NCBI RefSeq assembly: GCF_945881795.1
Contig: NZ_CAMCVG010000001.1
Coordinates: 7,488-71,487, forward strand
DNA length: 64,000 nucleotides
From: Rhodoferax sp. OV413
GTDB lineage: Bacteria > Pseudomonadota > Gammaproteobacteria > Burkholderiales > Burkholderiaceae_C
Reading direction: 5' to 3'
Below the pieces are notes generated by a model. It was not told where the DNA came from, made no database searches, and saw nothing but the letters and a program-made list of their open reading frames with translations. The translations under genes and the position numbers were made by a program. Of the stretch, positions 289-19,231 are shown in pieces (the first letter of the stretch is position 1; every line of letters starts with the position of its first letter).

Positions 289-304
289 TGGCACCAATCT
301 TGCC
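289..304 (+). promoter_or_regulatory. sigma-54 (-24/-12) promoter candidate P1
   Basis: TGGCAC-CAATC-TTGCC matches TGGCAC-N5-TTGCW with correct GG/GC spacing. It lies about 80 nt upstream of the TTG start at 383. Confidence 0.6.
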
Positions 305-382: not shown

Positions 383-1603
383 TTGACATCCCTGCGTCTG
401 GCGCCTTGGCGCGCTCTATTCCTCACTACCGGTCTTGCGACGTGCCTCGCTATATGCCTAGCCCTTGCACACCCCGGGGCTGCCGCTGCCACCATCACCG
501 TGGGGGTGCTGGGACTTGATGACGATTCGCGGTACCAACCCCGCGTGCTGGAAAAGCAGTACCCCGGGCACCCTCAAGGCCGTCAGATGGCAGGCGCTTC
601 GCTGGCTGCAAACGAGTCTGCGCCTGAGATGGAAGCCCTGGGCCACAAGCTGGTGATCAAGAGCTTTTCGGCGGCCAGCGCTGCCGACCTTCCCAAGGCA
701 TTGGCCCAGATCAAGGCGGCCAAGGTGCAATACGTATTGCTCGACCTGCCTGAGGCCGAGATCAAAAGCGTGCTCGCTGCGGGCCCCGCGGCAGGGGCGG
801 CGGTGTATTTCAATACCGGCTCGGCGTCCGACGAGCTGCGTGGTGCAGGCTGCAACGCAAACCTGTTGCACACCTACCCCAGCGAGGCCATGCGCAGTGA
901 CGCCGTGGCCCAATTTCTCGCAGCGCGCTCCTGGACGCAGGCCTTGGTGCTGCACGGTCCGCGGCCGCAGGATAAGCGGCAGCTGGATGCCTTCAGCCGC
1001 TCGGCCAAGCGCTATGGCGTCAAGCTCAGCAAAACCACCCAGTTCAAGCTCTCAACCGACCCGCGCGAGCGCGAGCTGGGCAATGTCCGCCTGCTGACCA
1101 AAGAAAAGGGCTACGACGTGGTGGTGGTGGTGGACAGCGACGGCGAGTTTGCCCGCGGCCTCCCCTACAACATCCAGTGGCCACGTCCGGTTGTGGGCGC
1201 CAACGGGCTAACCCCCCTGGCGTGGCATCCGCAGTGGGACTTAAATGGCGGGCCCCAGCTCTCGCGCCGTTTCATGCGCTCCGCCGGGCGGCCCATGGCC
1301 GAGCACGACTGGGCGTCATGGATTGCTGTCAAGGCAGTCGTGGGGGCATTGGCCGAGCAGCCAAAGGGCAGCGCTGCAGACCACCTCAAGGCCTTGCGGG
1401 GTGGGCAGGTGTTTTTGGATGGTTTCAAAGGACCGCGATTGTCGTTCCGCACCTGGGACGGGCAGTTGCGCCAACCGATTTTTCTGGGCCATGCCGATGG
1501 CGTGGCCGCTGCGGCTCCATTTGACGGCGTGATGCATCCCACCGATGTGCTGGACACCCTGGGTGTGGACGAGAAGGAGAGCGCATGTCGCAACCGTCCC
1601 TGA
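383..1603 (+). CDS. Periplasmic substrate-binding protein of the PQQ-alcohol-dehydrogenase-associated ABC system (PedA1/LutA-like)
   Basis: 406-aa ORF with TTG start and a signal-like N-terminus (LFLTTGLATCLAICLALAHPGAAAA). It is followed by an overlapping ABC-2 permease and sits in a PQQ-ADH context. Family assignment is from recall, not a search. Confidence 0.65.
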   Translation: MTSLRLAPWRALFLTTGLATCLAICLALAHPGAAAATITVGVLGLDDDSRYQPRVLEKQYPGHPQGRQMAGASLAANESAPEMEALGHKLVIKSFSAASAADLPKALAQIKAAKVQYVLLDLPEAEIKSVLAAGPAAGAAVYFNTGSASDELRGAGCNANLLHTYPSEAMRSDAVAQFLAARSWTQALVLHGPRPQDKRQLDAFSRSAKRYGVKLSKTTQFKLSTDPRERELGNVRLLTKEKGYDVVVVVDSDGEFARGLPYNIQWPRPVVGANGLTPLAWHPQWDLNGGPQLSRRFMRSAGRPMAEHDWASWIAVKAVVGALAEQPKGSAADHLKALRGGQVFLDGFKGPRLSFRTWDGQLRQPIFLGHADGVAAAAPFDGVMHPTDVLDTLGVDEKESACRNRP

Positions 1604-2394
1604 TGCATCTCGCCCGCGCAGTGCGCGCAGTGGTGGGGCGTGAGCTGCTGAAGTTCATGCGCCAGCCCTCCCGGCTGGCCTCAAGCCTGGTGCGGCCTCT
1701 GCTGTGGTTTGTGGTTTTCTCTGCGGGTTTTCATAACGTGTTTGGCGTGGCCATCATTCCGCCGTATGAGACCTATGTCGAATACAAGGTCTACATGCTG
1801 CCCGGACTGCTGGGGATGATTGCGCTGTTTAACGGCATGCAAAGCTCGCTCTCCATGGTCTACGACCGCGAGATGGGTGTCATGCGCCTGCTGCTGACCG
1901 CACCCCTGCCGCGCGGCTGGCTGCTGGGCTTCAAGCTACTGGCCTCCACCGTGTTGTCGTTGTTGCAGATGGTGGTCTTCCTGCTGATTGCGGTGGTGTT
2001 CGGGGTGGACTTGGAGCTGGCCAGCTGCCTGCTGGCGCTGCCCTTCATGGCCGTAGGCGCGACCATGCTGGCCGCCATGGGCCTGATGCTGTCGGTCTAC
2101 ATCAAGCAGCTGGAGAACTTTGCCGGCACCATGAACTTTGTCATATTCCCGATGTTCTTCATCAGCACCGCGCTCTATCCGCTGTGGAAGGTGGAGGAGT
2201 CCGGCGCACTGTGGTTGTCGCAGCTCGCGCAACTCAACCCGTTCACTTATGTGGTGGAACTGTTGCGATTTGCTCTGGAGGGGCAGTTCAACCCCACTGC
2301 GCTGGCCGTGGTGCTGGTGGGCGGCGCAGTGTGTTTTGGCCTCGCTTTGCGGGGTTACGACCCGCAGCGGGGCTGGGTGCGGCAGCGGGCCTGA
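1585..2394 (+). CDS. ABC-2 type transporter permease (PedC/LutF-like)
   Basis: 269-aa polytopic membrane ORF with ABC-2 permease-like hydrophobic pattern. It overlaps the upstream binding-protein gene; an alternative ATG at 1603 would give a TGATG overlap. Confidence 0.75.
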   Translation: MSQPSLMHLARAVRAVVGRELLKFMRQPSRLASSLVRPLLWFVVFSAGFHNVFGVAIIPPYETYVEYKVYMLPGLLGMIALFNGMQSSLSMVYDREMGVMRLLLTAPLPRGWLLGFKLLASTVLSLLQMVVFLLIAVVFGVDLELASCLLALPFMAVGATMLAAMGLMLSVYIKQLENFAGTMNFVIFPMFFISTALYPLWKVEESGALWLSQLAQLNPFTYVVELLRFALEGQFNPTALAVVLVGGAVCFGLALRGYDPQRGWVRQRA

Positions 2395-2403
2395 GGGGGT
2401 GCT

Positions 2404-4563
2404 GTGTGTAAAGCGGCGGTGAGCTTAAAGAGTCATTGGCGCGCAGGCTGGGCTGCTGTGTTCCTCGGGCTGTTTGCGCTGCTGGTGGACGGCCCCTTTG
2501 CGCACGCCGGCGTCATGGACCGCGCGGCCATGGAGAAAGCCTTTCCTTCGCCGCTTATCGTCGGTGAGAAAGATCGCGACCTTCCGGTCTGGCCGATCTT
2601 CAAGCAAGAGGCCACCGCGACACCCATCGTGGCTTATGCGTTTGAGTCCATCGACTTTGCGGCCATCCCCGGCTTCTCCGGCACACCCATGAACCTGTTG
2701 GTGGCGCTGGACAAGGACGGCAAGTTCATGGAAGTCAAAGTGCTGAACCACCACGAGCCGGTGTTTCTGGAAGGGCTGGGAGAGCAGCCTTTGTTCAAGT
2801 TTGTGGAGCAATACCAAAATCTCTCGCTCAAGCAGAGCATCAAGATCGGGCTCAACAACGCCAGTGACAACAAGGCCAACAGTGCCAACGTCTACATCGA
2901 CGGGGTCGCAAAGGCCACCGCCTCGGTGCGCATCTTGAACCAGAGCCTGCTGGCCGCTTCGCTGAAGGTGGCACGCGCCAAGATGGGTTACGGCGCAGGG
3001 CGTGACCCCGATATGGTGGGTCGCATCAAGCCCGATGTACTGGACGCGCTGGACTGGCAAGGCCTGGAGCGCAAGGGGCTGATTACCCGCAAAGTGTTTA
3101 GCAACGCCGAGGTGGAGGCGGCTTTCAAAGGCACCGCCGCCGAGGGGATGGATGACGGGGGCGGCGCTGCGAACGCTCCCTTCGTAGAGCTGGTATTCGC
3201 GCCGCTCACCGTGCCCTCGGTTGGAAGCAGCCTGCTGCCGCCAGCCACCTGGGATTACCTCCAAAAGCGACTGGAGCCCGGCGACCATGCCTTGCTGGTG
3301 GCGAGCAAGGGCCGCTACGGCATCGTCGGCGAGGACTTCCAGCGCGGCACCCTGCCGGACCGGCTCAGCCTGACCCAAGGCGGACTGCCGCTGGAAATGC
3401 GCGACCTCGATTTGGACACCACTATTGGTTTTCCCGAGGACCTGAAGGATGCGCAATGGCGCGTCTTCCGGGTTATTTCGGCCGCGGGGCTGGACCCTTC
3501 TTTGCCCCTGAATTTTGCGCTGCTGGTCTCGCGCAGCAAGGGGCAGTTTATGCCCGAGGTGGTTAACAAGCCTTTTGCGTTTTCTGCAGCCATCCCGGAG
3601 CGCTATGTCGAAGCCGCCAGCTCCGACAGCAAGACCTGGGTATTGAGCTGGACCTCACGGGTGTGGGAGTTGGCGTTGTTGGTGGCCGGTCTGGCACTGC
3701 TGGCATGGGCGCTGAGCCGGCCGCGCTGGCTGACCGCCAGCGTCTCGCGCTTGCATAGGTTCCGCCTGGGCTATTTGATCTTCACTCTGTTCTTCATAGG
3801 CTGGTATGCGCAGGGGCAGTTGTCCATCGTGAATATCACCGCCGTCATTCAGGCGTTGATGGCTGGCCGCAGCCTGGGCTTCCTGCTTTATGACCCGATG
3901 ACCGTGCTGCTGTGGGCCTTTGTGGCGCTGACCTTTTTTGTCTGGGGACGCGGCACCTTCTGCGGCTGGCTTTGCCCTTTCGGCGCGCTGCAGGACTTGG
4001 TAAGTCAGATCACCCGCAAGCTGGGCATTCGGCCGGTGCGGGTATCCGGCGATGTCGACCGGCAGCTCAAGCGGGTGAAATATGCGGTTCTGGGGCTGAT
4101 CGTGGTGTCGGCCTGTCTGTCGGTGACGTGGACGGACCGGCTGGTGGAGGTGGAGCCCTTCAAGACCAGTATCACGCTGAACTTTGTGCGTGCCTGGCCC
4201 TTTGTGTTGTGGGCGGTCGCCATGGTGGCCCTCAGTGCGTTTGTCTACAAGGGCTACTGCAGGTACCTGTGCCCGCTGGGAGCCGGCATGGGCGTGCTGG
4301 GACGCTTGCGCCGTTGGGACTGGATCGCCCGCCGCTCGGAGTGCGGGCAGCCCTGCCAGCGCTGCCGCAGCGATTGCGCCTACCAAGCAATCGAGAAGTC
4401 CGGCAAGGTGGACTACAACGAATGCTTCCAGTGCATGGACTGCGTGGTGATTTATGAGAGCGCGACCCTCTGCGTTCCTGTGTACAACAGCGCCCGCAAG
4501 GGTGGTGCGGCGGCGTCGGGTGCCACTGTGATTCCCATCGTTCCGGAAAGAAGCCCCTCATGA
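2404..4563 (+). CDS. NosR/NirI-family membrane flavo-iron-sulfur protein
   Basis: 719 aa. Signal/TM at the N-terminus, then a periplasmic region with an FMN-binding-domain-like motif DGVAKATAS (Thr codon 2917-2919). Several TM helices follow, with two CX3CP motifs (CGWLCPFGALQD, CRYLCPLGAG) and C-terminal Cys clusters CGQPCQRCRSDC and CFQCMDC. This is the NosR architecture. Confidence 0.75.
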   Translation: MCKAAVSLKSHWRAGWAAVFLGLFALLVDGPFAHAGVMDRAAMEKAFPSPLIVGEKDRDLPVWPIFKQEATATPIVAYAFESIDFAAIPGFSGTPMNLLVALDKDGKFMEVKVLNHHEPVFLEGLGEQPLFKFVEQYQNLSLKQSIKIGLNNASDNKANSANVYIDGVAKATASVRILNQSLLAASLKVARAKMGYGAGRDPDMVGRIKPDVLDALDWQGLERKGLITRKVFSNAEVEAAFKGTAAEGMDDGGGAANAPFVELVFAPLTVPSVGSSLLPPATWDYLQKRLEPGDHALLVASKGRYGIVGEDFQRGTLPDRLSLTQGGLPLEMRDLDLDTTIGFPEDLKDAQWRVFRVISAAGLDPSLPLNFALLVSRSKGQFMPEVVNKPFAFSAAIPERYVEAASSDSKTWVLSWTSRVWELALLVAGLALLAWALSRPRWLTASVSRLHRFRLGYLIFTLFFIGWYAQGQLSIVNITAVIQALMAGRSLGFLLYDPMTVLLWAFVALTFFVWGRGTFCGWLCPFGALQDLVSQITRKLGIRPVRVSGDVDRQLKRVKYAVLGLIVVSACLSVTWTDRLVEVEPFKTSITLNFVRAWPFVLWAVAMVALSAFVYKGYCRYLCPLGAGMGVLGRLRRWDWIARRSECGQPCQRCRSDCAYQAIEKSGKVDYNECFQCMDCVVIYESATLCVPVYNSARKGGAAASGATVIPIVPERSPS

Positions 4564-5555
4564 AGCGGCGCAATCTGATTGCCTTTGCAATGGGCGCGGC
4601 GGCGGGCTTGGGCAACGGGCCGGCCGCGGCCCGCCCCCACACGGCTGCCATGCAGTGGCAAAGCCGCACGCTGCAGGCCATGGGCACCGCCATGACTGTG
4701 CGTGCGGCGCACGCTGAGGGCGCGGTGCTTGCGCGCGCGCTGGACGCGGCGGTGGACGATATTCGAACCCTAGAAGACCAGATGAGTCTGTATCGCGAAG
4801 GCAGCGCCATTACCCGGCTCAACCAGGCCGGCCGGCTGGAGCGGGCACCGAACCATCTTCTGCAAGTGCTGCGGGTGGCGCAGGACGTGTCGCGCCGCAG
4901 CGGCGGCGCTTTTGATGTGACGGTGCAGCCGCTCTGGGCCGCCTATGCCACAGCGCAGTCGCAGGGGCGGCTGCCGACACCGGCAGAGATTCATGCCGCG
5001 CGGCGGCCGGTGGATTGGCGCCAACTGCATGTGGGGGCGCACACCGTGAGCCTGGCGCAGACCGGCATGGCCATTACGCTCAACGGCATTGCCCAAGGCT
5101 ACTGTGCCGATGTAGTGCGCCTTCGCCTGCAGTCCTTGGGTGTTGCTGATGCGCTGGTGGATACCGGTGAATGGGCGGCGCTGGGCGAGTCGGCGCATGG
5201 CACCGACTGGTCGCTGGGGCTGGCAGACCCGCGCGCTCCGGGTGAATTGCTGGCCACGGTGGCCCTTCGGGGGCGCTGCATCGCTTCGTCCGCCGACGAC
5301 CAGTGCCGCTTCAGCCCCGATGGCCGCGACCATCACATTTTCGATCCAATGGCCGGACGCTCGCCGCCGGAGTTGGCAGCGGTGACCGTGGCTGCCCGCA
5401 GCTGCGTGATGGCAGACGCCCTTACCAAGGTGTTTTTTGTGGCGGGCTACGACCGGGCGTTGCCCCTTGCGCGGGCTTGGGGCGTGGATGTGCTGGTGGT
5501 GGACAAAAAAGGCCGCTGGCAAGCCAGCGAAGGCTTCGGCGCACGCGTCCTGTAG
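4560..5555 (+). CDS. apbE: FAD:protein FMN transferase ApbE
   Basis: 331 aa with ATGA overlap to the upstream gene. Twin-Arg-like signal (MKRRNLIAFAMGAAAG). ApbE-like segments include MGTAMTV, FDVTVQPL and ITLNGIAQGY. Confidence 0.8.
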   Translation: MKRRNLIAFAMGAAAGLGNGPAAARPHTAAMQWQSRTLQAMGTAMTVRAAHAEGAVLARALDAAVDDIRTLEDQMSLYREGSAITRLNQAGRLERAPNHLLQVLRVAQDVSRRSGGAFDVTVQPLWAAYATAQSQGRLPTPAEIHAARRPVDWRQLHVGAHTVSLAQTGMAITLNGIAQGYCADVVRLRLQSLGVADALVDTGEWAALGESAHGTDWSLGLADPRAPGELLATVALRGRCIASSADDQCRFSPDGRDHHIFDPMAGRSPPELAAVTVAARSCVMADALTKVFFVAGYDRALPLARAWGVDVLVVDKKGRWQASEGFGARVL

Positions 5556-5692: not shown

Positions 5693-5708
5693 TGGCACAG
5701 TCCTTGCA
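5693..5708 (+). promoter_or_regulatory. sigma-54 (-24/-12) promoter P2 for the PQQ dehydrogenase operon
   Basis: TGGCAC-AGTCC-TTGCA is a perfect match to the TGGCAC-N5-TTGCA consensus. It lies about 100 nt upstream of the GTG start at 5810. Confidence 0.75.
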
Positions 5709-5809: not shown

Positions 5810-7531
5810 GTGAAAAAGAAACTCTTCGCCTTGCTCATGTCGGCAGCTGCCGCGCATGTGTCGGCACAAGTAACAGACGCCATGATTGCAAACGACGCTG
5901 CCGATGAAAGCTCGGTTTTGTCGTGGGGCATGGGCACACAAGGCCAGCGCTACTCCGCACTCGATAGCGTCAACACCAAAACCGTGAAGAACCTGGTGCC
6001 CGTGTGGTCCATGTCCTTCGGCGGCGAAAAACAACGCGGCCAGGAGTCGCAGCCTTTGGTCTACAAGGGCAAGATGTTCGTGACCGCCTCTTACTCCCGC
6101 ATTTTTGCGGTGGACGTCAAGACCGGCGAAAAAATCTGGAAGTACGAGCACCGTCTGCCCGAAGGCATCATGCCTTGCTGCGACGTGGTGAACCGTGGCG
6201 CTGCCCTGTATGACAACCTGGTGATCTTCGGCACATTGGACGCCCAAATCGTGGCCCTCGACCAAGACACCGGCAAGGTGGTGTGGCGCGAAAAGATTGA
6301 CGATTACGCAGCCGGCTACAGCTACACCGCAGCCCCTCTGATCGCTGACGGGTTGCTGATGACCGGCCTGTCCGGCGGCGAATTCGGTGTGGTGGGTCGT
6401 GTCGAAGCGCGTGACCCCAAGACCGGCAAGCTGGTCTGGACACGCCCCGTAGTCGAAGGCCACATGGGCTACAAAGACGGCAAGGAAAACGGTATTTCCG
6501 GCACCACCAACGCCACCTGGCCTGGTGAAATGTGGAAAACCGGTGGTGCATCCCCATGGTTGGGCGGCACTTACGACGCCAAGACCGGCCTCGCCTACTT
6601 CGGTACCGGCAACCCCGGCCCATGGAACGCCCACGTGCGCAAGGGTGACAACCTGTACTCCGCTGCCACCGTTGCGATCGATCCAAAGACCGGCAAGATC
6701 GTCTGGCACTATCAAAACACCCCCAACGACGCTTGGGACTTTGACGGCGTCAACGAGTTCATCACATTCGACATGGACGGCAAGCGCGTGGGCGGCAAGG
6801 CCGACCGTAACGGCTTCTTCTATGTGAACGATGCCGCCACCGGCAAGCTGATCAATGCCTTCCCGTTCGTGAAGGGCAACACATGGGCCAAGAGCATCGA
6901 CATTGCAACCGGACGTCCGAACTTCGTTCCTGAAAACCGCCCCGGCGACCCTAACGCGTCGGCTGACGGCAAGAAGGGCTCTGCAGTGTTCGCGGCTCCA
7001 GGCTTCCTGGGTGGCAAGAACCAACAGCCTATGGCCTACAGCCCCAAGAGCAAGATGTTCTATGTGCCCACCAACGAATGGGGCATGGACATCTGGAACG
7101 AGCCCATCACCTACAAGAAGGGCGGCGCTTACCTGGGTGCGGGCTTCACCATCAAGCCTTTGAACAACGACTACATCGGCAGCCTGCGCGCTTTTGATCC
7201 CAAGACCGGCAAGATGGCATGGGAGATCAAGAACAACGCGCCTCTGTGGGGTGGTGTTCTGGCAACCGCTGGCGACCTGGTCTTCTGGGGTACGCCTGAA
7301 GGCTACCTGAAGGCCGCTGATGCCAAGACCGGCAAGGTGCTGTGGCAATTCCAAACCGGCTCCGGCGTGGTGGCTCCTCCCATCACCTGGAAGCAAGACG
7401 GCGAGCAGTACATCAGCGTTGTGTCCGGCTGGGGCGGTGCGGTGCCGCTGTGGGGCGGCGAAGTGGCCAAGAAGGTCAACTTCCTCGAGCAAGGCGGTTC
7501 CGTGTGGACATTCAAGTTGCCCAAGAGCTAA
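5810..7531 (+). CDS. PQQ-dependent dehydrogenase, methanol/ethanol family (lanthanide-type signature)
   Basis: 573 aa with GTG start after AGGAGA and a signal peptide ([20 protein letters not shown]). Vicinal Cys pair PCCDVVNRG and repeated W-motif propeller blades. Active-site stretch [12 protein letters not shown] contains D-x-D (6737-6745). Confidence 0.9.
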
Positions 7532-7604
7532 TCAGCTAGTGTTTTGATGAAACGTGGGGTGTTGGGCGCAAGTTCAGCACCCCTCATTTATTGCCTCAAG
7601 TAGC

Positions 7605-7937
7605 ATGAAAAAATTCCTAATTCCTTTGCTTCTGTTGTCCGGCGCTTGCCACGCGACCGGGTTGAGCGCAGCCGATCAGGCCGCCGCCATGGCGATGGCC
7701 AAAGACAATGGCTGCTTCTCCTGCCATGCCATGAATGAGAAAGTGGTGGGCCCCTCGTTTTCTGCCATCGCAGAGCGATACCGGGGCGAGGCCGGAGCCG
7801 CTGCATCCTTGGTGCAAGCCATACAAAACGGCTCTAAAGGCAAGTGGGGTCGTATTCCCATGCCACCGCACTCTTCCATAGGCCAGGCGGATCTCGCCAA
7901 GCTGGCCAACTGGGTGCTGTCAGTTCCCAAGCAATAA
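7605..7937 (+). CDS. Small class I c-type cytochrome (c551/c552-like)
   Basis: 110 aa from the ATG at 7605 (MKKFLIPLLLLSGACHA signal). One CXXCH motif (CFSCHA) and a distal Met region GRIPMPPH. Confidence 0.75.
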   Translation: MKKFLIPLLLLSGACHATGLSAADQAAAMAMAKDNGCFSCHAMNEKVVGPSFSAIAERYRGEAGAAASLVQAIQNGSKGKWGRIPMPPHSSIGQADLAKLANWVLSVPKQ

Positions 7938-7955: not shown

Positions 7956-8777
7956 ATGTTCACTTCCCGGGGCGCGGCCTCTCTGGCACTCTCGGGCGCC
8001 CTGCTGATCAGTGGCGGCTCCTTGGCGCAAGACAGCACGCGCGCCGATTGGTTGCGCAACCCCGCGATGGGCAACTACAAGGCTTATGCCGAATTCAAGA
8101 TGGCCCGTTATGACTTCGCCCGGGAAGTCTGGCAAACCCTTGCAGAAGTAGGCAACGGGGATGCCTTGTTCAATTTGGGCATCCTGGCGGAAGACGGGCT
8201 GGGTGAGCCGCGCAATATGGGCAAAGCCGAGGCGCTGTACGCAAGCGCTGCATCGACCAACAACTTCAAGGCGCAGTACCGTCTGGGCCTGCTCTATTTC
8301 GCGGGCACCCTGCTGCCTCGCAACCCCGACAAAGCGCGCCTGTACCTCTCTCAGGCAGCTTCACACGGGGACCGAGATGCAAAAGCCATGCTGGCTACCT
8401 TGGGCCAGGATGCCAGTGCCCTGACGCCCTTGCAACAGGCCGAGCTGCTCAGTGGCGGCGGGCAGCACGAGCGCGCGGCGATCCTGTACCGTGAACTGGC
8501 GGAAGCAGGCGACTCCACTGCCCAGGCGCGCCTGGCTTGGGCCTACGAGGCGGGACGCGGTGTACCCATGGACTTGCAAGAGGCGGCTCGCAGGTTTGAG
8601 TTGGGTGCGCAGGCCGGCAATCCGGAAGCACAGTACGCTCTGGCCGTGATGTTGCGCACCGGGCGGGGCCGCACGTTAGACCTGCAGAAAAGCCTGGACT
8701 GGCTGCAAAAAGCGGCCTCCCAAAATCACCCCGCCGCCATGGCGGCGCTGGTTGCCAGCACTGCTGCCCCGCAATAG
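7956..8777 (+). CDS. Sel1-repeat (TPR-like) periplasmic protein
   Basis: 273 aa with a signal peptide and about six repeats of the Sel1 pattern (GDxxAxxxLGxxYxxGxGVPxDxxxAxxWxxxAA). Confidence 0.7.
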   Translation: MFTSRGAASLALSGALLISGGSLAQDSTRADWLRNPAMGNYKAYAEFKMARYDFAREVWQTLAEVGNGDALFNLGILAEDGLGEPRNMGKAEALYASAASTNNFKAQYRLGLLYFAGTLLPRNPDKARLYLSQAASHGDRDAKAMLATLGQDASALTPLQQAELLSGGGQHERAAILYRELAEAGDSTAQARLAWAYEAGRGVPMDLQEAARRFELGAQAGNPEAQYALAVMLRTGRGRTLDLQKSLDWLQKAASQNHPAAMAALVASTAAPQ

Positions 8778-8794: not shown

Positions 8795-10975
8795 TCAGCC
8801 CCAGACATCGGAAGGCAACTGGTCTTTCTTGCGGTAAATGGTGTTGCGCGAGACGCCCAGCATTTTTGCAGCGACCGAGACATTGCCACCGGTGCTGCGC
8901 AAAGCCTGCGCCATGGCGTCCAGGGCTACGTTCTCCAGCCTGGCCGGCTCTGTGCGCAGCGGCATAGCTTGTGGGGGCACAGGGGGCGCTGATACATCGA
9001 TGCTGATGTCTGTGCGCGCCTGGAGGGCGGTGGCAGGGTAGGGCATGTGCCGCACGATAGAGGGCGGCAACATGCGGTCAGCCAGGTTGGCTTCCTCCAG
9101 AAAGTCCTGCGGCAGGTGGTGCAGTTGAACCTCAGAGCTGTCGCCTGCCATCACCACGGTGGTCCGGAGCAGATTAAAAAGCTGGCGGAAATTGCCCGGC
9201 CAGGGGAACTGGTGGAAGATGTCCATCACCTCGGCCGAAATGCCCATGGGGGTGGCTGTCCTGCAGACGCTGGCCAGAATTTTGCGGGTTACCACCTCCA
9301 GGTCCTGACGCTCGCGTAGCGCGGGAAGGCGCACCACCAAACCGTTCAGCCGGTAGTACAGGTCTTCCCGAAACTCGCCGCGGGCGATCATGTCTTTGAG
9401 GTTCTTGTTGGTGGCACAAATTACGGCAACGTCCACCTCCACCTCTTTCCCGGCGCCCAGCGGGCTGACTTTTCGCTCTTGCAGCACACGCAGCAAACGG
9501 GCCTGCAGGTGCTTGGGCATATCGCCAATTTCGTCGAGGAACAAGGTTCCACCGTTGGCGTACAAGACCTTGCCCACCGACCCCTTGCGCTTGGCACCGG
9601 TGAAGGCGCCCTCTTCGTAGCCGAACAACTCGGACTCAATCAGCGTCTCGGGAATGGACGCACAGTTCACCGATACGAAGTTGTGCCGGGCCCGTGGCGA
9701 ATCGTTGTGAATGGCCTGCGCCAAAAGGTCTTTGCCGGTGCCGGTTTCGCCCAGGATCATGATCGGAATATCGCAGCCGCGCACCTTGCTGAGGTTTTGA
9801 ATTACGCGGGCGAGCTGCGGGTCCCCGGTGTCAAGGTAGCGCAGGCTGGAGAGAGACTCCATGCGCGCTTGCTGTTTTTCAACCACCGGTGCGGCGGCGG
9901 GCGGCGCTTCAAAGCCCTGCGCCTCAAAGGTGTTGCGCGGCTTTTGTTCGCTGAGACAACACACGCTTACCCCGTTGTGCATGCACAGAGTGACGGGTTG
10001 GCTGCCTGCCGTCCGGATGCGGTCGATGAATTGCGAAATCGAGGTACCGAACAAGGATGAAAAAGTATGTGCGCCCAAGGCGTTGCACGAAAGACCCAGC
10101 TGAAACTGCGCGCTGCGGTTGGCGGTAACAAACCGGCCCTCCTGGGTGAGAACAACAATGCCCTCCATCAGCGTGCCCAGAAATTCCGCCCGTGAGTGAA
10201 AGCGCACGATCACATCTTTCGGGAAGACCGCCGCGAACATGTGGTTTTCAATCATTTGGGCGGACATGCGGACCAGCGCCATGGTGTGCTGGTGGTAGCT
10301 GCGGTGGTCGCCGGTTACGTCCAGCGCACCAATGACTTTGCCGTAGGGGTCAAAAATGGGGGTGCACGAGCAGGTAAGAAAGCGATTGACCTGCAGGTAG
10401 TGCTGCGCGCCGTGCACCACCACCGGATGTTCTTCGGCCAATGCGGTGCCAATCGCATTGGTGCCCTTGCTCTTTTCGGACCAGTCCACCCCCGGGGCCA
10501 GTGCCACACGAGAGGCTTTTTCCAGAAAGTCGGCATCACCCAGCGAGTGCAACACCATGCCGCTGCGCGCGGTGAGCAGCACCATGCTTTGCGTGGTTGC
10601 GATCTGGTGGTAGAGCGTCTCCATGATGGGCGCGGCATGCCGGTACAAAAACCGGTTGGCCTCCAAGGCTTCGTTCATCTCACCGCGGGCGGCAGAGGTG
10701 TAGTCGGGCAGGTCTATCTCGCGCAGGCCGAAGCCGTTCGACCGCCCGTGGGAGGTGTGTATGAGCGTGGTGTGCTCAGGACTGTCCAAGGGCGGGCAGA
10801 TTAACGGGGCAAAGCCCTTCCCGCCGGCGTCGGCAATGCTAACTGCGGTCATTGTGTCTCCAGCAATCGCTTCCGGCCAGCCCATGGCGCTTGACTCAAA
10901 AGGACTTGTCGGGTCCGCTTCGAGTTCGCCAAGAAAATGATCCGTGCGATATGTTGTTGTGTAGCTCTTTGACAT
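8795..10975 (-). CDS. Sigma-54-dependent transcriptional activator, AcoR-like (GAF-AAA+-Fis HTH)
   Basis: 726 aa. N-terminal GAF-like sensory region, Walker A GETGTGKDLLAQAIH, and the sigma-54 contact loop EEGAFTGA. C-terminal HTH is AAKMLGVSRNTIYRKK. Confidence 0.85.
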   Translation of the reverse strand: MSKSYTTTYRTDHFLGELEADPTSPFESSAMGWPEAIAGDTMTAVSIADAGGKGFAPLICPPLDSPEHTTLIHTSHGRSNGFGLREIDLPDYTSAARGEMNEALEANRFLYRHAAPIMETLYHQIATTQSMVLLTARSGMVLHSLGDADFLEKASRVALAPGVDWSEKSKGTNAIGTALAEEHPVVVHGAQHYLQVNRFLTCSCTPIFDPYGKVIGALDVTGDHRSYHQHTMALVRMSAQMIENHMFAAVFPKDVIVRFHSRAEFLGTLMEGIVVLTQEGRFVTANRSAQFQLGLSCNALGAHTFSSLFGTSISQFIDRIRTAGSQPVTLCMHNGVSVCCLSEQKPRNTFEAQGFEAPPAAAPVVEKQQARMESLSSLRYLDTGDPQLARVIQNLSKVRGCDIPIMILGETGTGKDLLAQAIHNDSPRARHNFVSVNCASIPETLIESELFGYEEGAFTGAKRKGSVGKVLYANGGTLFLDEIGDMPKHLQARLLRVLQERKVSPLGAGKEVEVDVAVICATNKNLKDMIARGEFREDLYYRLNGLVVRLPALRERQDLEVVTRKILASVCRTATPMGISAEVMDIFHQFPWPGNFRQLFNLLRTTVVMAGDSSEVQLHHLPQDFLEEANLADRMLPPSIVRHMPYPATALQARTDISIDVSAPPVPPQAMPLRTEPARLENVALDAMAQALRSTGGNVSVAAKMLGVSRNTIYRKKDQLPSDVWG

Positions 10976-11154: not shown

Positions 11155-11643
11155 ATGACAACCAATATCCTCAAACAGGGCGCACTGGCTGCGCTGGCAC
11201 TGGCCGCCTGCATGGCCTGGACCTCCCAGAGCGCCTGGGCCCACGGCGATGTAGTCCCCCAGTCGGTAGACACAACGACATTGCCGCAACTCGGCCCCAA
11301 GTGGCTGGACAACAACCCCTATTCCGCAGGCCCCGCCAACAAGGAAGCACTGCGCATCGGCTCCTCTGCCTACAACCAGAATTGCGCACGTTGCCACGGC
11401 CTGGAGGCAATCTCCGGCGGCATATCGCCCGACTTGCGCAAGCTCGATGCCGACTGCATGGGCCTGGCCGATATGGCCAAAAAGCAGGCTTGTTTCGCGG
11501 AAATCAACGAATACTATGTGTCCACAACGCGCCGTGGGCGCACCCGCGACGGCCGCGTTTACATGCCTCCGTTTGAAGGTATCCTGACGCAGGAAGCCAT
11601 CTGGGCGATCAAGACTTACCTCGAAACCCGCCGCGAGCCTTGA
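11155..11643 (+). CDS. Cytochrome c550-type (PedF/ExaB-like) candidate electron acceptor of the quinoprotein
   Basis: 162 aa with a signal peptide, a single CXXCH (CARCHG) and YMPPFEG (Met ligand region). It is adjacent to a MoxJ-like gene, as in ped/exa/xox clusters. Confidence 0.7.
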   Translation: MTTNILKQGALAALALAACMAWTSQSAWAHGDVVPQSVDTTTLPQLGPKWLDNNPYSAGPANKEALRIGSSAYNQNCARCHGLEAISGGISPDLRKLDADCMGLADMAKKQACFAEINEYYVSTTRRGRTRDGRVYMPPFEGILTQEAIWAIKTYLETRREP

Positions 11644-11685: not shown

Positions 11686-12573
11686 ATGAGTCAATCACGC
11701 AATGTGAACCCCGGCGCATTCCCTCGCCGAATTCTGCTGGCAGCCGCTGCGCCCTTGGCTTTAGGGCTGGGCGGTGTGGCGCAGGCCCAGGAGAGAACCG
11801 CGGTCGAGAAAATCCGCGCCAATGGCGCCCTCAAGGTTGCGCTCTATAAAGACAACGTCCCTTTCTCGGACGGCACTGCCTCCGCGATGACGGGTCTGGA
11901 TGTGAGCCTGGCTGAGGCTTTGGCCCGGGAGCTGCAGCTCAAGACGTCGTTCCTCCCGTTCGATGCGGGCGAAAACATGGCGGATGACCTGCGCAACATG
12001 GTCTGGCGCGGGCACTACCTTGGCTACGGACCTGCCGACGTGATGTTGCACGTGCCGGTGGACAAATACTTCATGAGCCAGAACAGCCAGGCTTTCATCT
12101 TTGCCCCCTATACCCGCGAGTATCTGGTGTTGTTTTACAAGCGCGCAAACCTCGGCCTGGTGTCGCGTGTGGACGATCTGGTGGGCCGCAACATTGCGGT
12201 GGAGCGCGGTACCGGCGCTGCGAGCGCCATGTTGGGTTACCGTGGGGGCTTGGTGCGGGACCGGGTGATGCTGTTCAAGAGCGGCATGGATGCGGCCTCC
12301 AAGGTGCTCAGCGGTGAAGTCGATGCAGCGTTTGTCACTTTGGCGCAGGCTGAGGCCGCAGTGTTTGCCCGCAAGCTCGACCGCAAGGACTGGGAGTTCA
12401 CCCAGCTCTCCATGCCAGCGGTCCCGCCCAACGGCTGGGCGCTGGGCATGGCCGTCAAGGCAGACAGCAAAGAGTTGGCCACCTTGCTCGACGCAGCGCT
12501 CGATCGTCTGCGCTCGTCGGGCGAACTGCTGCGAATCTTTCAGTCGCACGGCCTGACTCTGGCCGCGCCCTGA
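11686..12573 (+). CDS. MoxJ/XoxJ-like quinoprotein-associated periplasmic binding protein
   Basis: 295 aa with a signal peptide and a family-3 solute-binding-like sequence (LKVALYKDNVPFS...). Its context immediately after the cytochrome c supports the call. Confidence 0.65.
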   Translation: MSQSRNVNPGAFPRRILLAAAAPLALGLGGVAQAQERTAVEKIRANGALKVALYKDNVPFSDGTASAMTGLDVSLAEALARELQLKTSFLPFDAGENMADDLRNMVWRGHYLGYGPADVMLHVPVDKYFMSQNSQAFIFAPYTREYLVLFYKRANLGLVSRVDDLVGRNIAVERGTGAASAMLGYRGGLVRDRVMLFKSGMDAASKVLSGEVDAAFVTLAQAEAAVFARKLDRKDWEFTQLSMPAVPPNGWALGMAVKADSKELATLLDAALDRLRSSGELLRIFQSHGLTLAAP

Positions 12574-12577: not shown

Positions 12578-13555
12578 TTAGTTGGCCAGTATCGAGTGGG
12601 GTTCGCGCCCCACCGGTACGGTCTTGAGAGGTTTGCGGCTGGCGGTGTCGATGATGGTCATGTCGTCAGACATGCCATTGGCTGCATAGAGCTTGCTACC
12701 GTCCTTCGACAGTGCTACGCCCCACGCACGCTTGCCCACCAGTGCGACGCCCTTTACCGCGCGGCTGGCTGTATCGACCTCTGCAACATGGTTGGCGCGG
12801 CCCAGTGCGACCCACACGGTCTTGCCATCGGCACTCATGGTCATGCCCACAGGGGTGATGTCGGAGGCGCGCATGCCCTTCACCTCAAACTTCAGGGTGT
12901 GGCGCACTTTCATGGTTTGGGTGTCAATGATGCTGACGCTGGCACCCAGCTCGTTGGTTACCCAGAGCTCCGACGCATCGGGCGCAATCACAAAGCGGCG
13001 TGGGCGCAGCCCCACTTTGACCTGGCCCGTGGTTTTGCGCTTGTCCACATCAATGCGGTAGACGCTGCTGGCAACCTCGGAGGTTGCGAACAAGGTTTTG
13101 CCATCGGCAGTGACCAGCACGCCCTCGGGCTCGGCACCGGTCTTGACCGAGAACAATGGCTTCTTGGTCGCCAGGTCGTAGGCGGTCACGTTGTTCTCAT
13201 CTTCGATCGACACATAGGCGACCTTGCCGTCCGGTGAGAGCGAAATGATTTCCGGGCTCTCGCCGGTGGGCACGGTGCCCACCATCTTGCCGGCCTTCAC
13301 GTCAATGACGCCGAGCTGGTCGCTGTCGCCGCAAACAACCAAGATTTGCTGTCCGCTCTGGGCCCATTCCATATGGCGAGGGCGTTTGCAGACTTCGATG
13401 GAGCGCAGGACTTTTCCTTCGTCATCGAGCTGGACCACCGTATTGTCTTTCTCGCTGCTCACAAAGATGTCGGCCATGCTGGCAGTGCATGCCAACAAGG
13501 CAGCGCAGGCCAGCGAAACTGTGCGCAAAACGGGGGCGGTTTTAGGGGTTTTCAT
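12578..13555 (-). CDS. YVTN-family beta-propeller protein (PQQ-catabolism associated; PedA2/LutB-like)
   Basis: The start is placed at MKTPKTAPVL (ATG complement 13553-13555), preceded by AGGAGA. Repeated 40-residue blades are present (DGKxxYVAxxxxxxVxVIDxxxxKV). Confidence 0.75.
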   Translation of the reverse strand: MKTPKTAPVLRTVSLACAALLACTASMADIFVSSEKDNTVVQLDDEGKVLRSIEVCKRPRHMEWAQSGQQILVVCGDSDQLGVIDVKAGKMVGTVPTGESPEIISLSPDGKVAYVSIEDENNVTAYDLATKKPLFSVKTGAEPEGVLVTADGKTLFATSEVASSVYRIDVDKRKTTGQVKVGLRPRRFVIAPDASELWVTNELGASVSIIDTQTMKVRHTLKFEVKGMRASDITPVGMTMSADGKTVWVALGRANHVAEVDTASRAVKGVALVGKRAWGVALSKDGSKLYAANGMSDDMTIIDTASRKPLKTVPVGREPHSILAN

Positions 13556-13589
13556 GGGGTGTCTCCTGTAGGTTTGGAAGCGAACACTG

Positions 13590-13605
13590 AGCAATACTCA
13601 TGCCA
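13590..13605 (-). promoter_or_regulatory. sigma-54 (-24/-12) promoter P4 (minus strand)
   Basis: The reverse complement reads TGGCAT-GAGTA-TTGCT. It lies about 35 nt upstream of the beta-propeller start codon. Confidence 0.65.
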
Positions 13606-13694: not shown

Positions 13695-14474
13695 ATGACA
13701 AACCCTGACCGCTCTCCCCAAAATTGCCAGCCTGTGCTGGTAACCCACGCGCTGCAAAAGTCTTACGGCGCCAAGAAGGTGTTGAAGTCGGTCTCACTCT
13801 CGGTGCGCTTGGGTGAGTTCGTCGCCTTGCTCGGTCCTAACGGTGCGGGCAAGTCCACCCTGATTCAGATTTTGAGTGGCCTTTTTGTGGCCGAGCAGGG
13901 CGACCTCAGCCTGCTGGGCTTTGATATCCGCAAGGACGCGTCCAAGGCCCTGGCAGGGTTGGGCGTGGTGTTTCAGCAGGCTTCCCTGGACCTGGATTTG
14001 AGTGTGCGGGCCAACCTGCTGTTTCACACCGACCTGCACGGCCTGCCACGGTCTGTAGCGCAAGAGCGTATTTCTGCGGGTCTGGAGCAGCATGGGCTGC
14101 AGGCCCAGGCCGAAGTGGCAGTGCGCGCGCTCTCAGGCGGCAACCGGCGCAAGGTGGAATTGATCCGCGCGCTGCTGCACAAGCCGAAGTTCTTGCTGAT
14201 GGACGAGGCGACCGTGGGCCTCGATCCCGCCTCGCGCCACGACCTGATGCGCTCCGTCGAGGCGCTGGCCCGCAGCGGCGAGGTGGCGGTGCTCTGGACC
14301 ACGCATTTGGTCGATGAAGTGGTGAACGCCGACCGCGTAGTGGTGCTGCACCAGGGGCAGATTGCTTTTGACGGCCTGCCCGCGCAGCTGATTGCCCAGT
14401 CAGGCGAGGCCACACTGGAGCAGGCATTTTTCAAGATCTGTGAGGCAGCGTCGTCGGCTACAGCGCGCCCTTGA
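13695..14474 (+). CDS. ABC transporter ATP-binding protein (PedB/LutE-like partner of the ABC-2 permease)
   Basis: 259 aa with Walker A GPNGAGKST, signature LSGGNRRKV and Walker B LLLMDEAT. Confidence 0.85.
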   Translation: MTNPDRSPQNCQPVLVTHALQKSYGAKKVLKSVSLSVRLGEFVALLGPNGAGKSTLIQILSGLFVAEQGDLSLLGFDIRKDASKALAGLGVVFQQASLDLDLSVRANLLFHTDLHGLPRSVAQERISAGLEQHGLQAQAEVAVRALSGGNRRKVELIRALLHKPKFLLMDEATVGLDPASRHDLMRSVEALARSGEVAVLWTTHLVDEVVNADRVVVLHQGQIAFDGLPAQLIAQSGEATLEQAFFKICEAASSATARP

Positions 14475-17137: not shown

Positions 17138-19231
17138 ATGCGGGCCCATCCGAAACTCCGACCTATCGTTATTGCCACCATTACCGCCTGCTGCAGCGCT
17201 GGCGTTATGGCCCAGACCCTGCAGGAAGTCGTCGTATCAGCCTCACGCAGTGAGCAAAAAAGTTTTGACGCGCCCGCTGCGGTGCAAAGCGTGGGGCGCG
17301 AAGTCATTCAAGACGCCGGTCCGCAGGTCAACCTGTCCGAGTCTCTGGTGCGAGTGCCTGGCCTGACCATTTTGGACCGCCAGAACTACGCGCAGGACTT
17401 ACAGCTCTCGATCCGCGGCTTCGGCGCCCGCGCGACTTTTGGCATTCGCGGTATCCGCTTGTTGATTGACGGGATTCCGGCCAGCACCCCCGACGGTCAG
17501 GGCCAGGGCTCCAGCATCAGCCTGCCGTCTACCGAGCGCATTGAGGTGTTGCGCGGACCGCTGGCTCTGCTGTATGGCAATTCCTCGGGCGGCGTGATTC
17601 AAGCATTCACCAAGCCCGCACCCGACGCCCCCACGGTGGACTACCAGTACTACGTGGGCTCCTATGGATTGCACCGCGCGGACTACCAGTTTGGCGACAC
17701 GGTGGGCAAAGTGGGCATCGTGGCCGACTACAGCACCATGAGCATTGACGGTTACCGCGCCAACAGCACGACCGAGCGCAAGCAGTTCAACGGCAAGCTC
17801 GCCATGGACCTGAACGATGACCTCAAGGTCAATCTGGTGTTCAACCAGTTTGATATGCCGCTGGCCCGCGACCCGCTGGGTTTGACCCGGGCCCAGCTTC
17901 AGCAAGATCCGTCTGCCGCGGGAACCAATGCCACTAGCACCCTGACACGCAAAATCGTGGCGCAAAACCAGGTCGGTAGTTCGGCTACCTATGCGCTGGA
18001 CAAAGACCAGTCGCTGACCGGCCGCGTGTATTACGGCAACCGCGAGAACACCCAGTACCTGTCGTCAAGTCGATGGGTGGGCTTGACCCGCGACTACTAC
18101 GGCGTGGGCCTGCAGTACAACGCCCGCACCAAGGTGGCCGACACGCCAGTGGAGTGGGTCACTGGGTACGAGTTCGACCGCTCACGGGAATACCGGGTGG
18201 GTGGTCTTTCGCCGGCGGGCCAAAAAACCGGCGCCAACACCCGCAGCGAGGACAACCAGTCCGAGAACAGCGATTTGTTTGTGCAAGGCACGGCCGCGCT
18301 GTCCGAGAAGGTGTCGGTCGCGGCGGGCCTGCGCAACAGCACGGTGCGTTTCATCAGCGATGACTATTACACCAGCGGCGGCGACCCTAATGGCTCGGGT
18401 AATGTGTCGTACCAGGCTACCAGCCCAGTGGTGGGCGTCACCTTCCATGCCTCCGACAGCCTGAACCTGTATGCTAACTATGGCAAGGGTTTTGAGACGC
18501 CTACGCTGGCCGAAATGGCGTATGTGCCTACGGCTGGAAGCACGACATTGCTGTCGGGCCAGTTCAACACGGCGCTCAACGCATCCACCAGCCGGCATTA
18601 CGAGCTGGGCACCAAGTGGGCGCCGACCGAGACCTCGCGGGTTGATTTCGCTTACTACCAAATCGACACTACCGACGAAATCGTCATTGAGCGCAGCAGC
18701 CAGGGGCAGAATTCCTTCAAAAATGCACCGGGTACCAGCCGCAGTGGCTGGGAGCTGTCTGCGAGCAGCCAGTGGACCCCGCATATCGCCTTGACTGCGT
18801 CGGCCGCGATGATTGACGCGCAGTATTCACAGACCTTTACCACCGGCACGACGACCGTGGCTTCCGGCAGCAAGATGCCTGGCATTCCGCAAACCTCGGT
18901 GTACTCGGAACTGGCCTGGACCAGCCAGCCGGCCGGTGCAAGCCGCACGCCCAATGGGCTGCGCTTGGCGGTGGAGATGGTGCAGTCGGGCCGTATTTAT
19001 GCCAATGACAGCAATACCGAGTCAGCCGATGGCCGCACCGTGTTCAACCTGAGCGCCAGCCAGCGCTGGGGCGTGGGCAAGGGGTCCTTGACCGCTTACG
19101 CGCGGCTCAACAACCTGAGCGACGAGCGCTATGTCGGCTCGGTCATCGTGAACCAATCGGCCTTGCAGTTCTACGAGCCGGGTCTGCCGCAGAACTGGAC
19201 GGTGGGCCTGAGCCTGCGCGTTCCGCTGTAA
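17138..19231 (+). CDS. TonB-dependent outer-membrane receptor
   Basis: 697 aa with a signal peptide, a TonB box-like LQEVVVSASR, a plug domain (RVPGLTILDRQNYAQDLQLSIRGFG) and a long beta-barrel with alternating pattern. Confidence 0.85.
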   Translation: MRAHPKLRPIVIATITACCSAGVMAQTLQEVVVSASRSEQKSFDAPAAVQSVGREVIQDAGPQVNLSESLVRVPGLTILDRQNYAQDLQLSIRGFGARATFGIRGIRLLIDGIPASTPDGQGQGSSISLPSTERIEVLRGPLALLYGNSSGGVIQAFTKPAPDAPTVDYQYYVGSYGLHRADYQFGDTVGKVGIVADYSTMSIDGYRANSTTERKQFNGKLAMDLNDDLKVNLVFNQFDMPLARDPLGLTRAQLQQDPSAAGTNATSTLTRKIVAQNQVGSSATYALDKDQSLTGRVYYGNRENTQYLSSSRWVGLTRDYYGVGLQYNARTKVADTPVEWVTGYEFDRSREYRVGGLSPAGQKTGANTRSEDNQSENSDLFVQGTAALSEKVSVAAGLRNSTVRFISDDYYTSGGDPNGSGNVSYQATSPVVGVTFHASDSLNLYANYGKGFETPTLAEMAYVPTAGSTTLLSGQFNTALNASTSRHYELGTKWAPTETSRVDFAYYQIDTTDEIVIERSSQGQNSFKNAPGTSRSGWELSASSQWTPHIALTASAAMIDAQYSQTFTTGTTTVASGSKMPGIPQTSVYSELAWTSQPAGASRTPNGLRLAVEMVQSGRIYANDSNTESADGRTVFNLSASQRWGVGKGSLTAYARLNNLSDERYVGSVIVNQSALQFYEPGLPQNWTVGLSLRVPL

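Follow-up and report, generated by a model that had tools for sequence, protein, structure and literature searches.

NosR is regarded as the probable electron donor that sustains the activity of nitrous oxide reductase in vivo and also affects transcription (PMC7660919, PMC12052999); homologues of the PedA1A2BC and Lut proteins are needed for lanthanide-dependent growth, and the lanthanide uptake cluster of M. extorquens (lutABEFGH) contains no NosR-like gene (PMC7391723). In a survey of flavinylation-associated gene clusters, Méheust et al. (2021, eLife 10:e66878, PMC8238504) reported, in the part that deals with the 'ethanol oxidase' gene exaA, NapH-like flavinylated clusters with this gene in 172 genomes; that part gives a model (Figure 5A), holds that the exaA associations arose several times and proposes electron exit from the oxidase. 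Here, we examine a 64-kb stretch of DNA from Rhodoferax sp. OV413 (contig NZ_CAMCVG010000001.1; 64,000 nucleotides, herein referred to as the window, to whose positions all coordinates refer, on the plus strand unless stated otherwise), in which a gene for a NosR-like transmembrane iron-sulfur (Fe-S) flavoprotein (2404..4563) is followed by one for an ApbE/NosX-type flavin adenine dinucleotide (FAD):protein flavin mononucleotide (FMN) transferase (4560..5555). Seen together with its relatives in other proteobacteria, the pair is an optional, widely conserved accessory of a sigma-54-controlled regulon for lanthanide-type alcohol dehydrogenases (ADHs) that use pyrroloquinoline quinone (PQQ).

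In the survey of Méheust et al., the definition given for such a cluster is a PF12801 protein in a flavinylation cluster (ApbE and/or FMN_bind) together with a K00114-type ExaA, annotated, according to the description of Supplementary file 1, across five genes on each side of the key gene (PMC8238504). The window conforms to this definition (PF12801 at 70.7 bits, ApbE adjacent, a PQQ-ADH as the second gene downstream), and its cluster is another instance of an association already published on genomic grounds in 2021; the possible redox link that the initial annotation of this DNA had called undescribed had thus already been proposed. Set against the account of the exaA clusters in that survey, the new points are a link to a lanthanide-type ADH, cytochromes that are kept, a variant of the flavinylation motif and a coupling with uptake genes. 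Our literature searches found no experimental work that ties NosR or ApbE to PedH, ExaF, XoxF or lanthanides, and no paper that connects the pair with lanthanides.

The NosR-like protein and its flavin transferase

The 719-residue product of the NosR-like gene, which starts with GTG, has what we predict to be a complete NosR architecture, namely a periplasmic FMN domain, a transmembrane core that bears two CX3CP motifs and, in the cytoplasm, an Fe-S tail; the full NosR/NirI architecture proposed in the initial annotation was borne out by hidden Markov model searches, a precomputed domain annotation and invariant ligand residues. The Pfam model FMN_bind (PF04205; 24.5 bits against a cut-off of 22) covers residues 91-181 (2674..2946), Fer4_5 (PF12801) matches in two stretches, and the NCBIfam NosR model NF046105 aligns end to end across residues 38-698 with 558.5 bits (cut-off 1000), whereas the NapH/MauN model TIGR02163 (61.2 bits; cut-off 213) and the NapH model NF007013 (61.7 bits; cut-off 234) both stay below threshold and align only within residues 479-688 (TIGR02163: 495-686). 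The protein hence has the membrane/Fe-S core common to it and to NapH/MauN, yet is not a member of that family. A database protein that is 100% identical over its full length (P0001) carries, in its precomputed annotation, the Pfam 'NosR' middle domain PF27538.

An alignment of 27 homologues, with identity down to 33%, leaves invariant Thr172 (codon 2917..2919), C520, C524 and P525 of the first CX3CP motif (3961..3978), C619, C623 and P624 of the second (4258..4275), and eight C-terminal cysteines, C647/C651/C654/C658 and C674/C677/C680/C690, in a ferredoxin-type region (4342..4473) predicted to provide two [4Fe-4S] sites. Hydropathy and charge indicate a signal or anchor at about residues 14-37, a periplasmic part of some 380 residues (38-419), five more transmembrane helices and the cytoplasmic Fe-S tail, in agreement with the published topology of NosR. 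The AlphaFold2 model (mean predicted local distance difference test score 81) has a single significant structural match in the PDB, at the FMN domain, to RnfG, the flavinylated subunit of Rnf (Foldseek, 7zc6_G, E 6.5e-5). A PDB sequence search with the protein gave no homologue, and no NosR or NapH structure was found there by sequence or fold search. A clue to the redox partner was sought in the structure as well and abandoned, since RnfG was all that the fold search gave for the FMN domain, with immunoglobulin-like noise for the middle domain.

The window protein is 30-33% identical to the nosZ-adjacent NosR of S. meliloti, Ralstonia and Phaeobacter, for which plasmid records served as the canonical references. 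We compared it with the 80 best species-level relatives from a GTDB genome scan, taken with flanks of about 10 kb, some of them incomplete. A neighbor-joining tree of 653 trimmed columns, a distance tree without bootstrap support to which a fourth nos-linked NosR, from Paracoccus, was added, places all four nos-operon proteins outside a clade to which the window protein and the 80 loci all belong. With S. meliloti pSymA proteins as tblastn queries (E <= 1e-6), NosZ, NosD and NosL had no match within the 64-kb window, in line with the statement in the initial annotation that no nosZ is present, and none within 10 kb in any of the 80 loci; these searches with real proteins superseded a regular expression for the NosZ CuA motif, which matched in no locus. 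A nos or nir operon running into the pair from upstream, a case that the initial annotation had raised, is also excluded, as the only gene upstream of position 383 is the 3' end of an unrelated one (1-246), followed by a promoter motif. The NF046105 cut-off proved too strict to be used as the sole test of membership: the nosZ-adjacent NosR of S. meliloti, at 805 bits, falls below it as well, and the orthology call accordingly rests on the tree and gene context, not on the threshold. From its sequence, we assign the protein to the NosR family by architecture, as a paralogue outside the nos clade and not an orthologue of nos-operon NosR.

One candidate reference was discarded. The Stutzerimonas stutzeri locus (strain CLN100, L053), considered as a canonical nosR, turned out from the Pfam domains of its neighbours to be an orphan paralogue without nos genes. 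No ApbE, nos or Ped gene lies within 10 kb of this non-nos-clade gene (9992-12121 of L053), whose neighbours encode an FAD oxidoreductase, a CheW-type response regulator and DNA polymerase II. It was in S. stutzeri, formerly Pseudomonas stutzeri, that NosR was characterized.

The motif DGVAKATAS, proposed at the outset as a flavinylation motif, is present at residues 166-174 and contains the invariant Thr172; it departs, however, from the published consensus D-x-x-[S/T]-G-A-[S/T] (PMC12052999) at two positions, with Ala for Ser/Thr and Lys for Gly. Across 88 NosR-family sequences, the nos-operon NosR proteins carry the canonical D-x-[IV]-S-G-A-T, and the non-nos clade carries D-G-V-[T/A/S]-K-A-T in more than 60 of 84 sequences, with Lys or sometimes Met replacing Gly. 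The Lys-for-Gly variant may mark co-adaptation with the clade's own ApbE. In the window, the start of the ApbE gene (Pfam ApbE, 213 bits) overlaps the stop codon of the NosR-like gene by 4 nt (ATGA), and the N-terminus of its product, MKRRNLIAF, has the twin arginine of a Tat-like signal, so that both the coupling and the signal noted in the initial annotation are confirmed. An ApbE gene directly follows the NosR-like gene in 58 of the 80 related loci. Because Thr172 is invariant and ApbE is co-located, covalent attachment of FMN to Thr172 is plausible.

Association with a lanthanide-type alcohol dehydrogenase regulon

The pair makes up the second half of a closely spaced unit of four genes that begins with a PedA1/LutA-like periplasmic binding protein of the PQQ-ADH-associated ATP-binding cassette (ABC) system (383..1603; TIGR03863 PQQ_ABC_bind, 409 bits, cut-off 413.6; Pfam Peripla_BP_6) and a PedC/LutF-like ABC-2 permease (1585..2394; TIGR03861, 351.8 bits, cut-off 241; Pfam ABC2_membrane, 106 bits), the latter separated from the NosR-like gene by 9 nt. 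An exact match to the sigma-54 type promoter motif TGGCAC-N5-TTGC precedes the unit (289..303), as the initial annotation had it. Within the 255-bp intergenic gap behind ApbE lies a second exact match (5693..5707), upstream of an operon for a PedH-type, that is, lanthanide-type, PQQ-ADH (5810..7531; TIGR03075, 757 bits), a small c-type cytochrome co-transcribed with it (7554..7937; Pfam Cytochrom_C, 33.4 bits; CxxCH present) and a Sel1-repeat protein (7956..8777; Pfam Sel1, 99 bits; kept in close relatives). These are the only two exact motifs in the 64 kb (0.40 expected), and 5 of 100 shuffled sequences gave two or more. The first recurs upstream of the orthologous operon in five relatives (L001, L002, L003, L004, L010) and the second is kept in three (L001, L002, L010); the small cytochrome c is kept 3' of the ADH in L001-L006 and L010. 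Since the ADH has its own sigma-54 promoter, the pair and the ADH belong to two co-regulated operons and not, as initially proposed, to a single PQQ-ADH/ABC operon, although they share a regulon. Its likely regulator is a sigma-54-dependent activator with GAF, AAA+ and HTH_8 domains encoded just beyond (8795..10975, minus strand; Pfam Sigma54_activat, 224.5 bits, GAF, HTH_8), and a GAF-domain activator co-occurs with the module in beta-proteobacterial loci. Motifs with one mismatch lie 5' of the cytochrome gene pedF (11088-11102, plus strand), of a beta-propeller gene (13591-13605, minus strand) and of an SsuA-like ABC operon (16999-17013, minus strand), and the same activator may control five transcription units; this is judged by position alone, with 12 one-mismatch sites present against 11 expected.

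The ADH in the window is closest to PedH, as the initial annotation of a lanthanide-type quinoprotein implied. Its best structure matches are PedH 6ZCV and 6ZCW (792.1 and 790.9 bits), against 662 bits for the ExaA-type 1FLG, and its W-D-F-D aligns with the W-D-F-D of PedH, whereas the calcium enzyme ExaA has W-D-F-S; a vicinal Cys-Cys is present. We therefore class it as a lanthanide-type (Asp-x-Asp) enzyme, with metal dependence predicted from these residues. The same type recurs throughout the survey: every ADH-containing locus has an Asp-x-Asp ADH, in loci that are phylogenetically non-independent and in a survey without a genome-wide baseline, and the only two Asp-x-Ser (ExaA-like) enzymes detected each accompany an Asp-x-Asp enzyme as an additional copy in the same locus. 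As the search query picked up both types, detection was unbiased between them.

At least one strong Ped marker (PedH-like ADH, PedA1-like binding protein, PedA2-like propeller, PedC permease or PedF) occurs in the available flank of 46 of the 80 loci, and in 26 of the 44 that have at least 9 kb on both sides. The Ped-linked loci span Alpha-, Beta- and Gammaproteobacteria (Comamonadaceae, Variovorax, Oxalobacteraceae, Rhodocyclales, Methylobacterium/Ancylobacter/Methylopila, many Rhodobacterales, Grimontia and Marinobacter), with one further locus in a metagenome-assembled genome (MAG) labelled Deltaproteobacteria; the co-occurrence with Ped and PQQ-ADH genes that the initial annotation proposed to survey is thus found across three proteobacterial classes. 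The block of binding protein, permease, NosR-like protein, ApbE, ADH and cytochrome c recurs with unrelated flanks in Rhodoferax lacus and in one MAG. The stable unit is the NosR-like gene with ApbE, and its immediate neighbour varies: a permease in the window clade, a beta-propeller gene immediately 5' of the NosR-like gene in Methylobacterium-type loci, a porin-like gene behind the ADH in Oxalobacteraceae and, in Rhodobacterales, where the pair stands alone, a divergent MoxJ-like gene. Subclades without Ped genes are orphans or occupy unrelated contexts with no common neighbour theme, one of them adjoining a multicopper oxidase-cytochrome c fusion.

A cytochrome for the ADH is usually still present in these clusters: the window keeps both the small cytochrome c and a cytochrome c-550 PedF (11155..11643; TIGR04494, 205.4 bits, cut-off 122), and a PedF-type or ADH-linked cytochrome c gene lies in the flank of 24 of the 34 ADH-containing loci. 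Because of this, simple replacement of the cytochrome is disfavoured, and the evidence argues against a NosR-like protein that merely takes its place. Six of the ten ADH loci without a cytochrome gene are from Oxalobacteraceae, with a fetched flank that ends exactly where PedF is expected, upstream of the MoxJ-like gene, and these cannot be used as evidence of cytochrome loss. Two overlapping plus-strand open reading frames (ORFs) occupy 11043-11643 of the window; the longer (11043-11576, 177 aa) has no family match and PedF is the shorter (11155-11643, 162 aa), so that naive longest-ORF calling would miss the canonical ADH electron acceptor. The window PedF shares 61% identity with the protein annotated as PedF in Aquabacterium olei, whose 366-kb plasmid pTB101 (L084) carries PedF, the NosR-like/ApbE pair and a two-ADH cluster in which an IS3 transposase separates the calcium-type from the lanthanide-type gene; a 648-aa PQQ-ADH at 16028-17974 of that locus is missing from the PLSDB gene table.

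The cluster continues beyond the ADH operon, where PedF, a PedA2-like beta-propeller and the PedB ATPase had, like the separate ADH promoter, been overlooked initially. PedF is followed by a MoxJ/PedJ-like periplasmic binding protein, which adjoins it in related loci too (11686..12573; Pfam SBP_bac_3, with a weak TIGR03871 match), by the PedA2/LutB-like YVTN beta-propeller protein (12578..13594, minus strand; TIGR03866, 288 bits, cut-off 287.3) and by a PedB/LutE-like ABC ATPase, the component missing from the NosR-like operon (13695..14474; TIGR03864, 313.9 bits, cut-off 302.25). Three components of the PedA1A2BC-type transporter (permease, ATPase and beta-propeller) thus score above their cut-offs, with the binding protein at 409 against 413.6, and the genes are split, the binding protein and permease lying with the pair and the beta-propeller and ATPase 8-10 kb away. 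The beta-propeller (12578-13594) also has sub-threshold matches to the lactonase-type clade III nitrous oxide reductase (78 bits), to hydrazine synthase beta and to quinohemoprotein amine dehydrogenase beta; NosZ, NirS and PQQ-ADH, the partners of NosR-family proteins, are all periplasmic beta-propellers. Past an SsuA-like ABC operon (14458-16939, minus strand) lies a PqqU-like TonB-dependent receptor below the model threshold (17138..19231; NF041535, 477 bits, cut-off 1200), which may belong to the uptake arm of the system, and two related clusters likewise include TonB-dependent receptors (L017, 1103-3241; L009, 13049-15307). Genes for pqq biosynthesis were not seen among the annotated ORFs of the window, the sampled remainder of which is housekeeping, including cell-wall synthesis genes: a plus-strand run at 31743-46341 with a penicillin-binding transpeptidase and Mur ligases is apparently a dcw (cell-division/cell-wall) cluster, and a DUF484 gene (21612-22796) and a XerC-like recombinase (22855-23871) lie before it.

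Among the related loci, we looked for a hidden redox partner in the unannotated cluster genes and discarded the idea, the genes proving to encode a TonB-dependent receptor, an aldehyde dehydrogenase, a DUF779 protein and a histidine kinase. Massilia and Janthinobacterium (L016-L021 and L027, at ~8630-9940) share a conserved ORF of about 435 aa, placed between the genes for the ADH and the NosR-like protein; with a signal peptide, a C-terminal Phe and no Pfam or NCBIfam match, its product looks like an outer-membrane porin, and distant copies (26-30% identity) occur near orphan NosR-like genes in L058, L070 and L080. A Rhizobacter MAG (L055, 9689-16877) has a NosR-like/ApbE pair of another subclade beside an FGE-sulfatase-like protein and an adjoining 805-aa multicopper-oxidase/cytochrome c fusion, a different periplasmic redox context for the same module. 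In a Rhodocyclales MAG (L034), a radical SAM/SPASM protein with a PqqE-like domain pair (12597-13769) lies ~500 bp 3' of a NosR-like gene that has no adjacent ApbE, with a lanthanide-type ADH 5 kb upstream.

Possible functions of the pair

Tentatively, and with rather less than even confidence, we favor outward electron delivery, in which the pair would provide reductive support to the lanthanide-ADH system; both the direction and the target are inferred. The module would comprise two cytoplasmic [4Fe-4S] clusters, two membrane-proximal CX3CP sites and a periplasmic FMN bound covalently to Thr172; electrons from quinol or a cytoplasmic donor would pass, assisted by the membrane potential, to the periplasmic FMN, through which some periplasmic component of the system would be held in reduced form. 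The likeliest target would be the PedH-type enzyme itself, through reductive activation or maintenance of its PQQ or of the vicinal Cys-Cys disulfide, on the analogy of NosR, which sustains NosZ activity in vivo, and catalytic electrons would still leave the ADH through PedF and the ADH-linked cytochrome c. Outward flow is favored because all family members with a proposed function (NosR, PceC and NapH) supply electrons to the periplasmic side and because PedF, the normal exit, is retained. Typical cofactor potentials are ~+90 mV for PQQH2 and ~+100 mV for ubiquinone, and on general bioenergetic grounds, inward transfer from PQQH2 to ubiquinone by way of low-potential FMN and [4Fe-4S] centers, against the membrane potential, would have essentially no driving force, which again speaks for outward flow.

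Several points weigh against this reading. The potentials used are those typical of the cofactors and not of the NosR-like protein itself, and we know of no reductive activation step for PQQ alcohol dehydrogenases. The flavinylation motif is non-canonical, with Lys for Gly, and since a Gly-to-Ala change in a model protein halves flavinylation (PMC12052999), FMN attachment to Thr172 is itself a prediction. P. putida and M. extorquens run their Ped and Lut systems without a NosR-like protein (PMC7391723), and literature searches found no experimental work on any member of the clade. Gene order, moreover, ties the pair to transporter genes at least as often as to the ADH, the pair directly following binding-protein, beta-propeller or permease genes in the window clade and in Methylobacterium-type loci.

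This gene order bears on what else the pair might do. A redox step in lanthanide or cofactor acquisition, in which the FMN would reduce a metal-chelator complex or a cofactor of the TonB/PedA1A2BC route (for example, freeing metallophore-bound Ce(IV) or Fe(III), or reducing imported PQQ), would account for the packed operon shared with the binding protein and permease, for the alphaproteobacterial order of binding protein, beta-propeller, NosR-like protein and ApbE, for three loci (L038, L043 and L054) with transporter genes and no ADH within the flank, and for the TonB-dependent receptors in or near the clusters; it fits the lanthanide-type enzyme in every ADH set found and the requirement for PedA1A2BC/Lut homologues in lanthanide-dependent growth (PMC7391723). 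We nevertheless consider it quite unlikely, as under physiological conditions no lanthanide but Ce and Eu is redox-active, Ped and Lut uptake, where characterized, does without such a protein, and six loci (L013, L033, L034, L037, L067 and L077) have the pair, an ADH and PedF, with no transporter genes in full flanks. Other flavinylated systems are reportedly linked to iron uptake in the work of Méheust and colleagues, which we count in its favor. The three candidate roles of the initial annotation, namely electron exit, upkeep of the enzyme and a redox step in the import of metal or cofactor, are all still live hypotheses. In electron exit, which Méheust et al. (2021) proposed for the NapH-like clusters with exaA in 172 genomes (PMC8238504), reduced PQQ would pass electrons through FMN and Fe-S centers to the quinone pool, as an alternative to or replacement for cytochrome c550, and could thereby conserve more energy or permit quinol-dependent terminal reductases. 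Ethanol oxidation by ubiquinone is exergonic overall, ten of the 34 ADH loci lack a cytochrome gene in the flank, and in Oxalobacteraceae, the pair follows the ADH on the same strand with no cytochrome gene in the fetched flank. That flank, however, runs out upstream of the MoxJ-like gene, at the very place where PedF ought to lie; the window and 24 of the 34 ADH loci retain cytochromes, which opposes simple replacement; no family member is known as an inward electron carrier; and the bioenergetic objection to inward flow from ~+90 mV applies in full. On balance, we hold electron exit to be unlikely, if a serious contender.

A reading that joins lanthanide specificity to outward flow, namely that the pair is a lanthanide-specific periplasmic reductase, acting either in Ce(IV)/Fe(III) release from a metallophore or in reactivation of the lanthanide-PQQ enzyme, we regard as possible but somewhat doubtful; the Asp-x-Asp ADH in every ADH locus and the co-transcription with uptake genes are compatible with it. 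A regulatory or redox-sensing role, in which the periplasmic or membrane redox state would be relayed to the ADH regulon through the sigma-54 activator, draws on the effect of NosR on nosZ transcription in P. denitrificans (PMC7660919) and on the GAF-domain activator that is adjacent here and in many beta-proteobacterial loci. The redox ligands and the ApbE partner are, however, strictly conserved, as befits an electron carrier better than a sensor; Pfam and NCBIfam searches found no DNA-binding or signalling output domain in the NosR-like protein; and alpha- and gamma-proteobacterial loci have the pair but not the activator, so that such a role appears very improbable. NosR and NirI originally came to notice because expression of nosZ and nirS requires them. 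The pair might, lastly, be an ordinary NosR/NosX working for a nitrous oxide reductase encoded at another site of the genome, its place beside alcohol genes being due to chance: the architecture is identical to that of NosR, the NosR model aligns end to end, and some organisms encode the NosR flavin transferase away from the nos cluster (PMC7660919). Yet synteny with Ped genes is kept in 46 species of three classes, the clade is separate from nos-operon NosR and differs from it in the flavinylation motif, none of the 80 relatives has nosZ, nosD or nosL within 10 kb, and the pair and the ADH operon have a sigma-54 promoter arrangement in common; we give this explanation hardly any credence.

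Were the pair a lanthanide-specific reductase, the NosR family would gain a new physiological role and lanthanide biology its first redox step. The NosR family is poorly understood even in denitrification, not least in the route and direction of its electrons across the membrane, and a large sister clade tied to aerobic, lanthanide-type alcohol oxidation offers a second and genetically easy system for the family, in culturable genera that include Variovorax, Janthinobacterium, Massilia, Methylobacterium, Ruegeria, Paracoccus and Marinobacter. The module has escaped study because the lanthanide models P. putida and M. extorquens lack it; it could bring to light a need for redox chemistry in maintaining the enzyme or acquiring the metal, and if it were merely an alternative electron exit, the bioenergetic accounting of periplasmic alcohol oxidation would change in many environmental bacteria.

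Comparison with known systems

The NosR of P. stutzeri, P. denitrificans and S. meliloti has the same domain order as the window protein, a Tat-signal ApbE-type flavin transferase and, as its partner, a periplasmic beta-propeller enzyme; the window protein differs in its 30-33% identity, its separate clade, its D-G-V-A-K-A-T in place of D-x-[IV]-S-G-A-T, and a context of alcohol oxidation and lanthanide uptake with no NosZ, NosD or NosL match nearby. NapH/MauN (TIGR02163) and PceC/RdhC have in common with it the membrane core, with its pair of CX3CP motifs, and the ferredoxin-type clusters in the cytoplasm, but the periplasmic FMN and NosR domains are missing from NapH and MauN. MauN provides a precedent for this core in a quinoprotein cluster, that of methylamine dehydrogenase. 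PceC is described in the survey of Méheust et al. as a flavinylated member that serves a periplasm-facing reductase (PMC8238504), and differs in belonging to organohalide respiration in anaerobes. The window has homologues of all components of PedA1A2BC (P. putida) or LutABEF (M. extorquens) with PedH/ExaF and PedF, whereas the characterized clusters are without the NosR-like/ApbE pair, none being listed in the lut cluster (PMC7391723). Closest are the NapH-like/ExaA clusters of Méheust et al., as far as that survey describes them, with a PF12801 Fe-S membrane protein, an N-terminal extracytosolic FMN domain, ApbE and a K00114-type ADH. Theirs is a bioinformatic description that puts the flavoprotein in the role of cytochrome c; the window, in contrast, keeps PedF and a second cytochrome c, its pair is co-transcribed with Ped/Lut-type transporter genes and not with the ADH, and in our survey, a lanthanide-type enzyme is present in every co-located ADH set.

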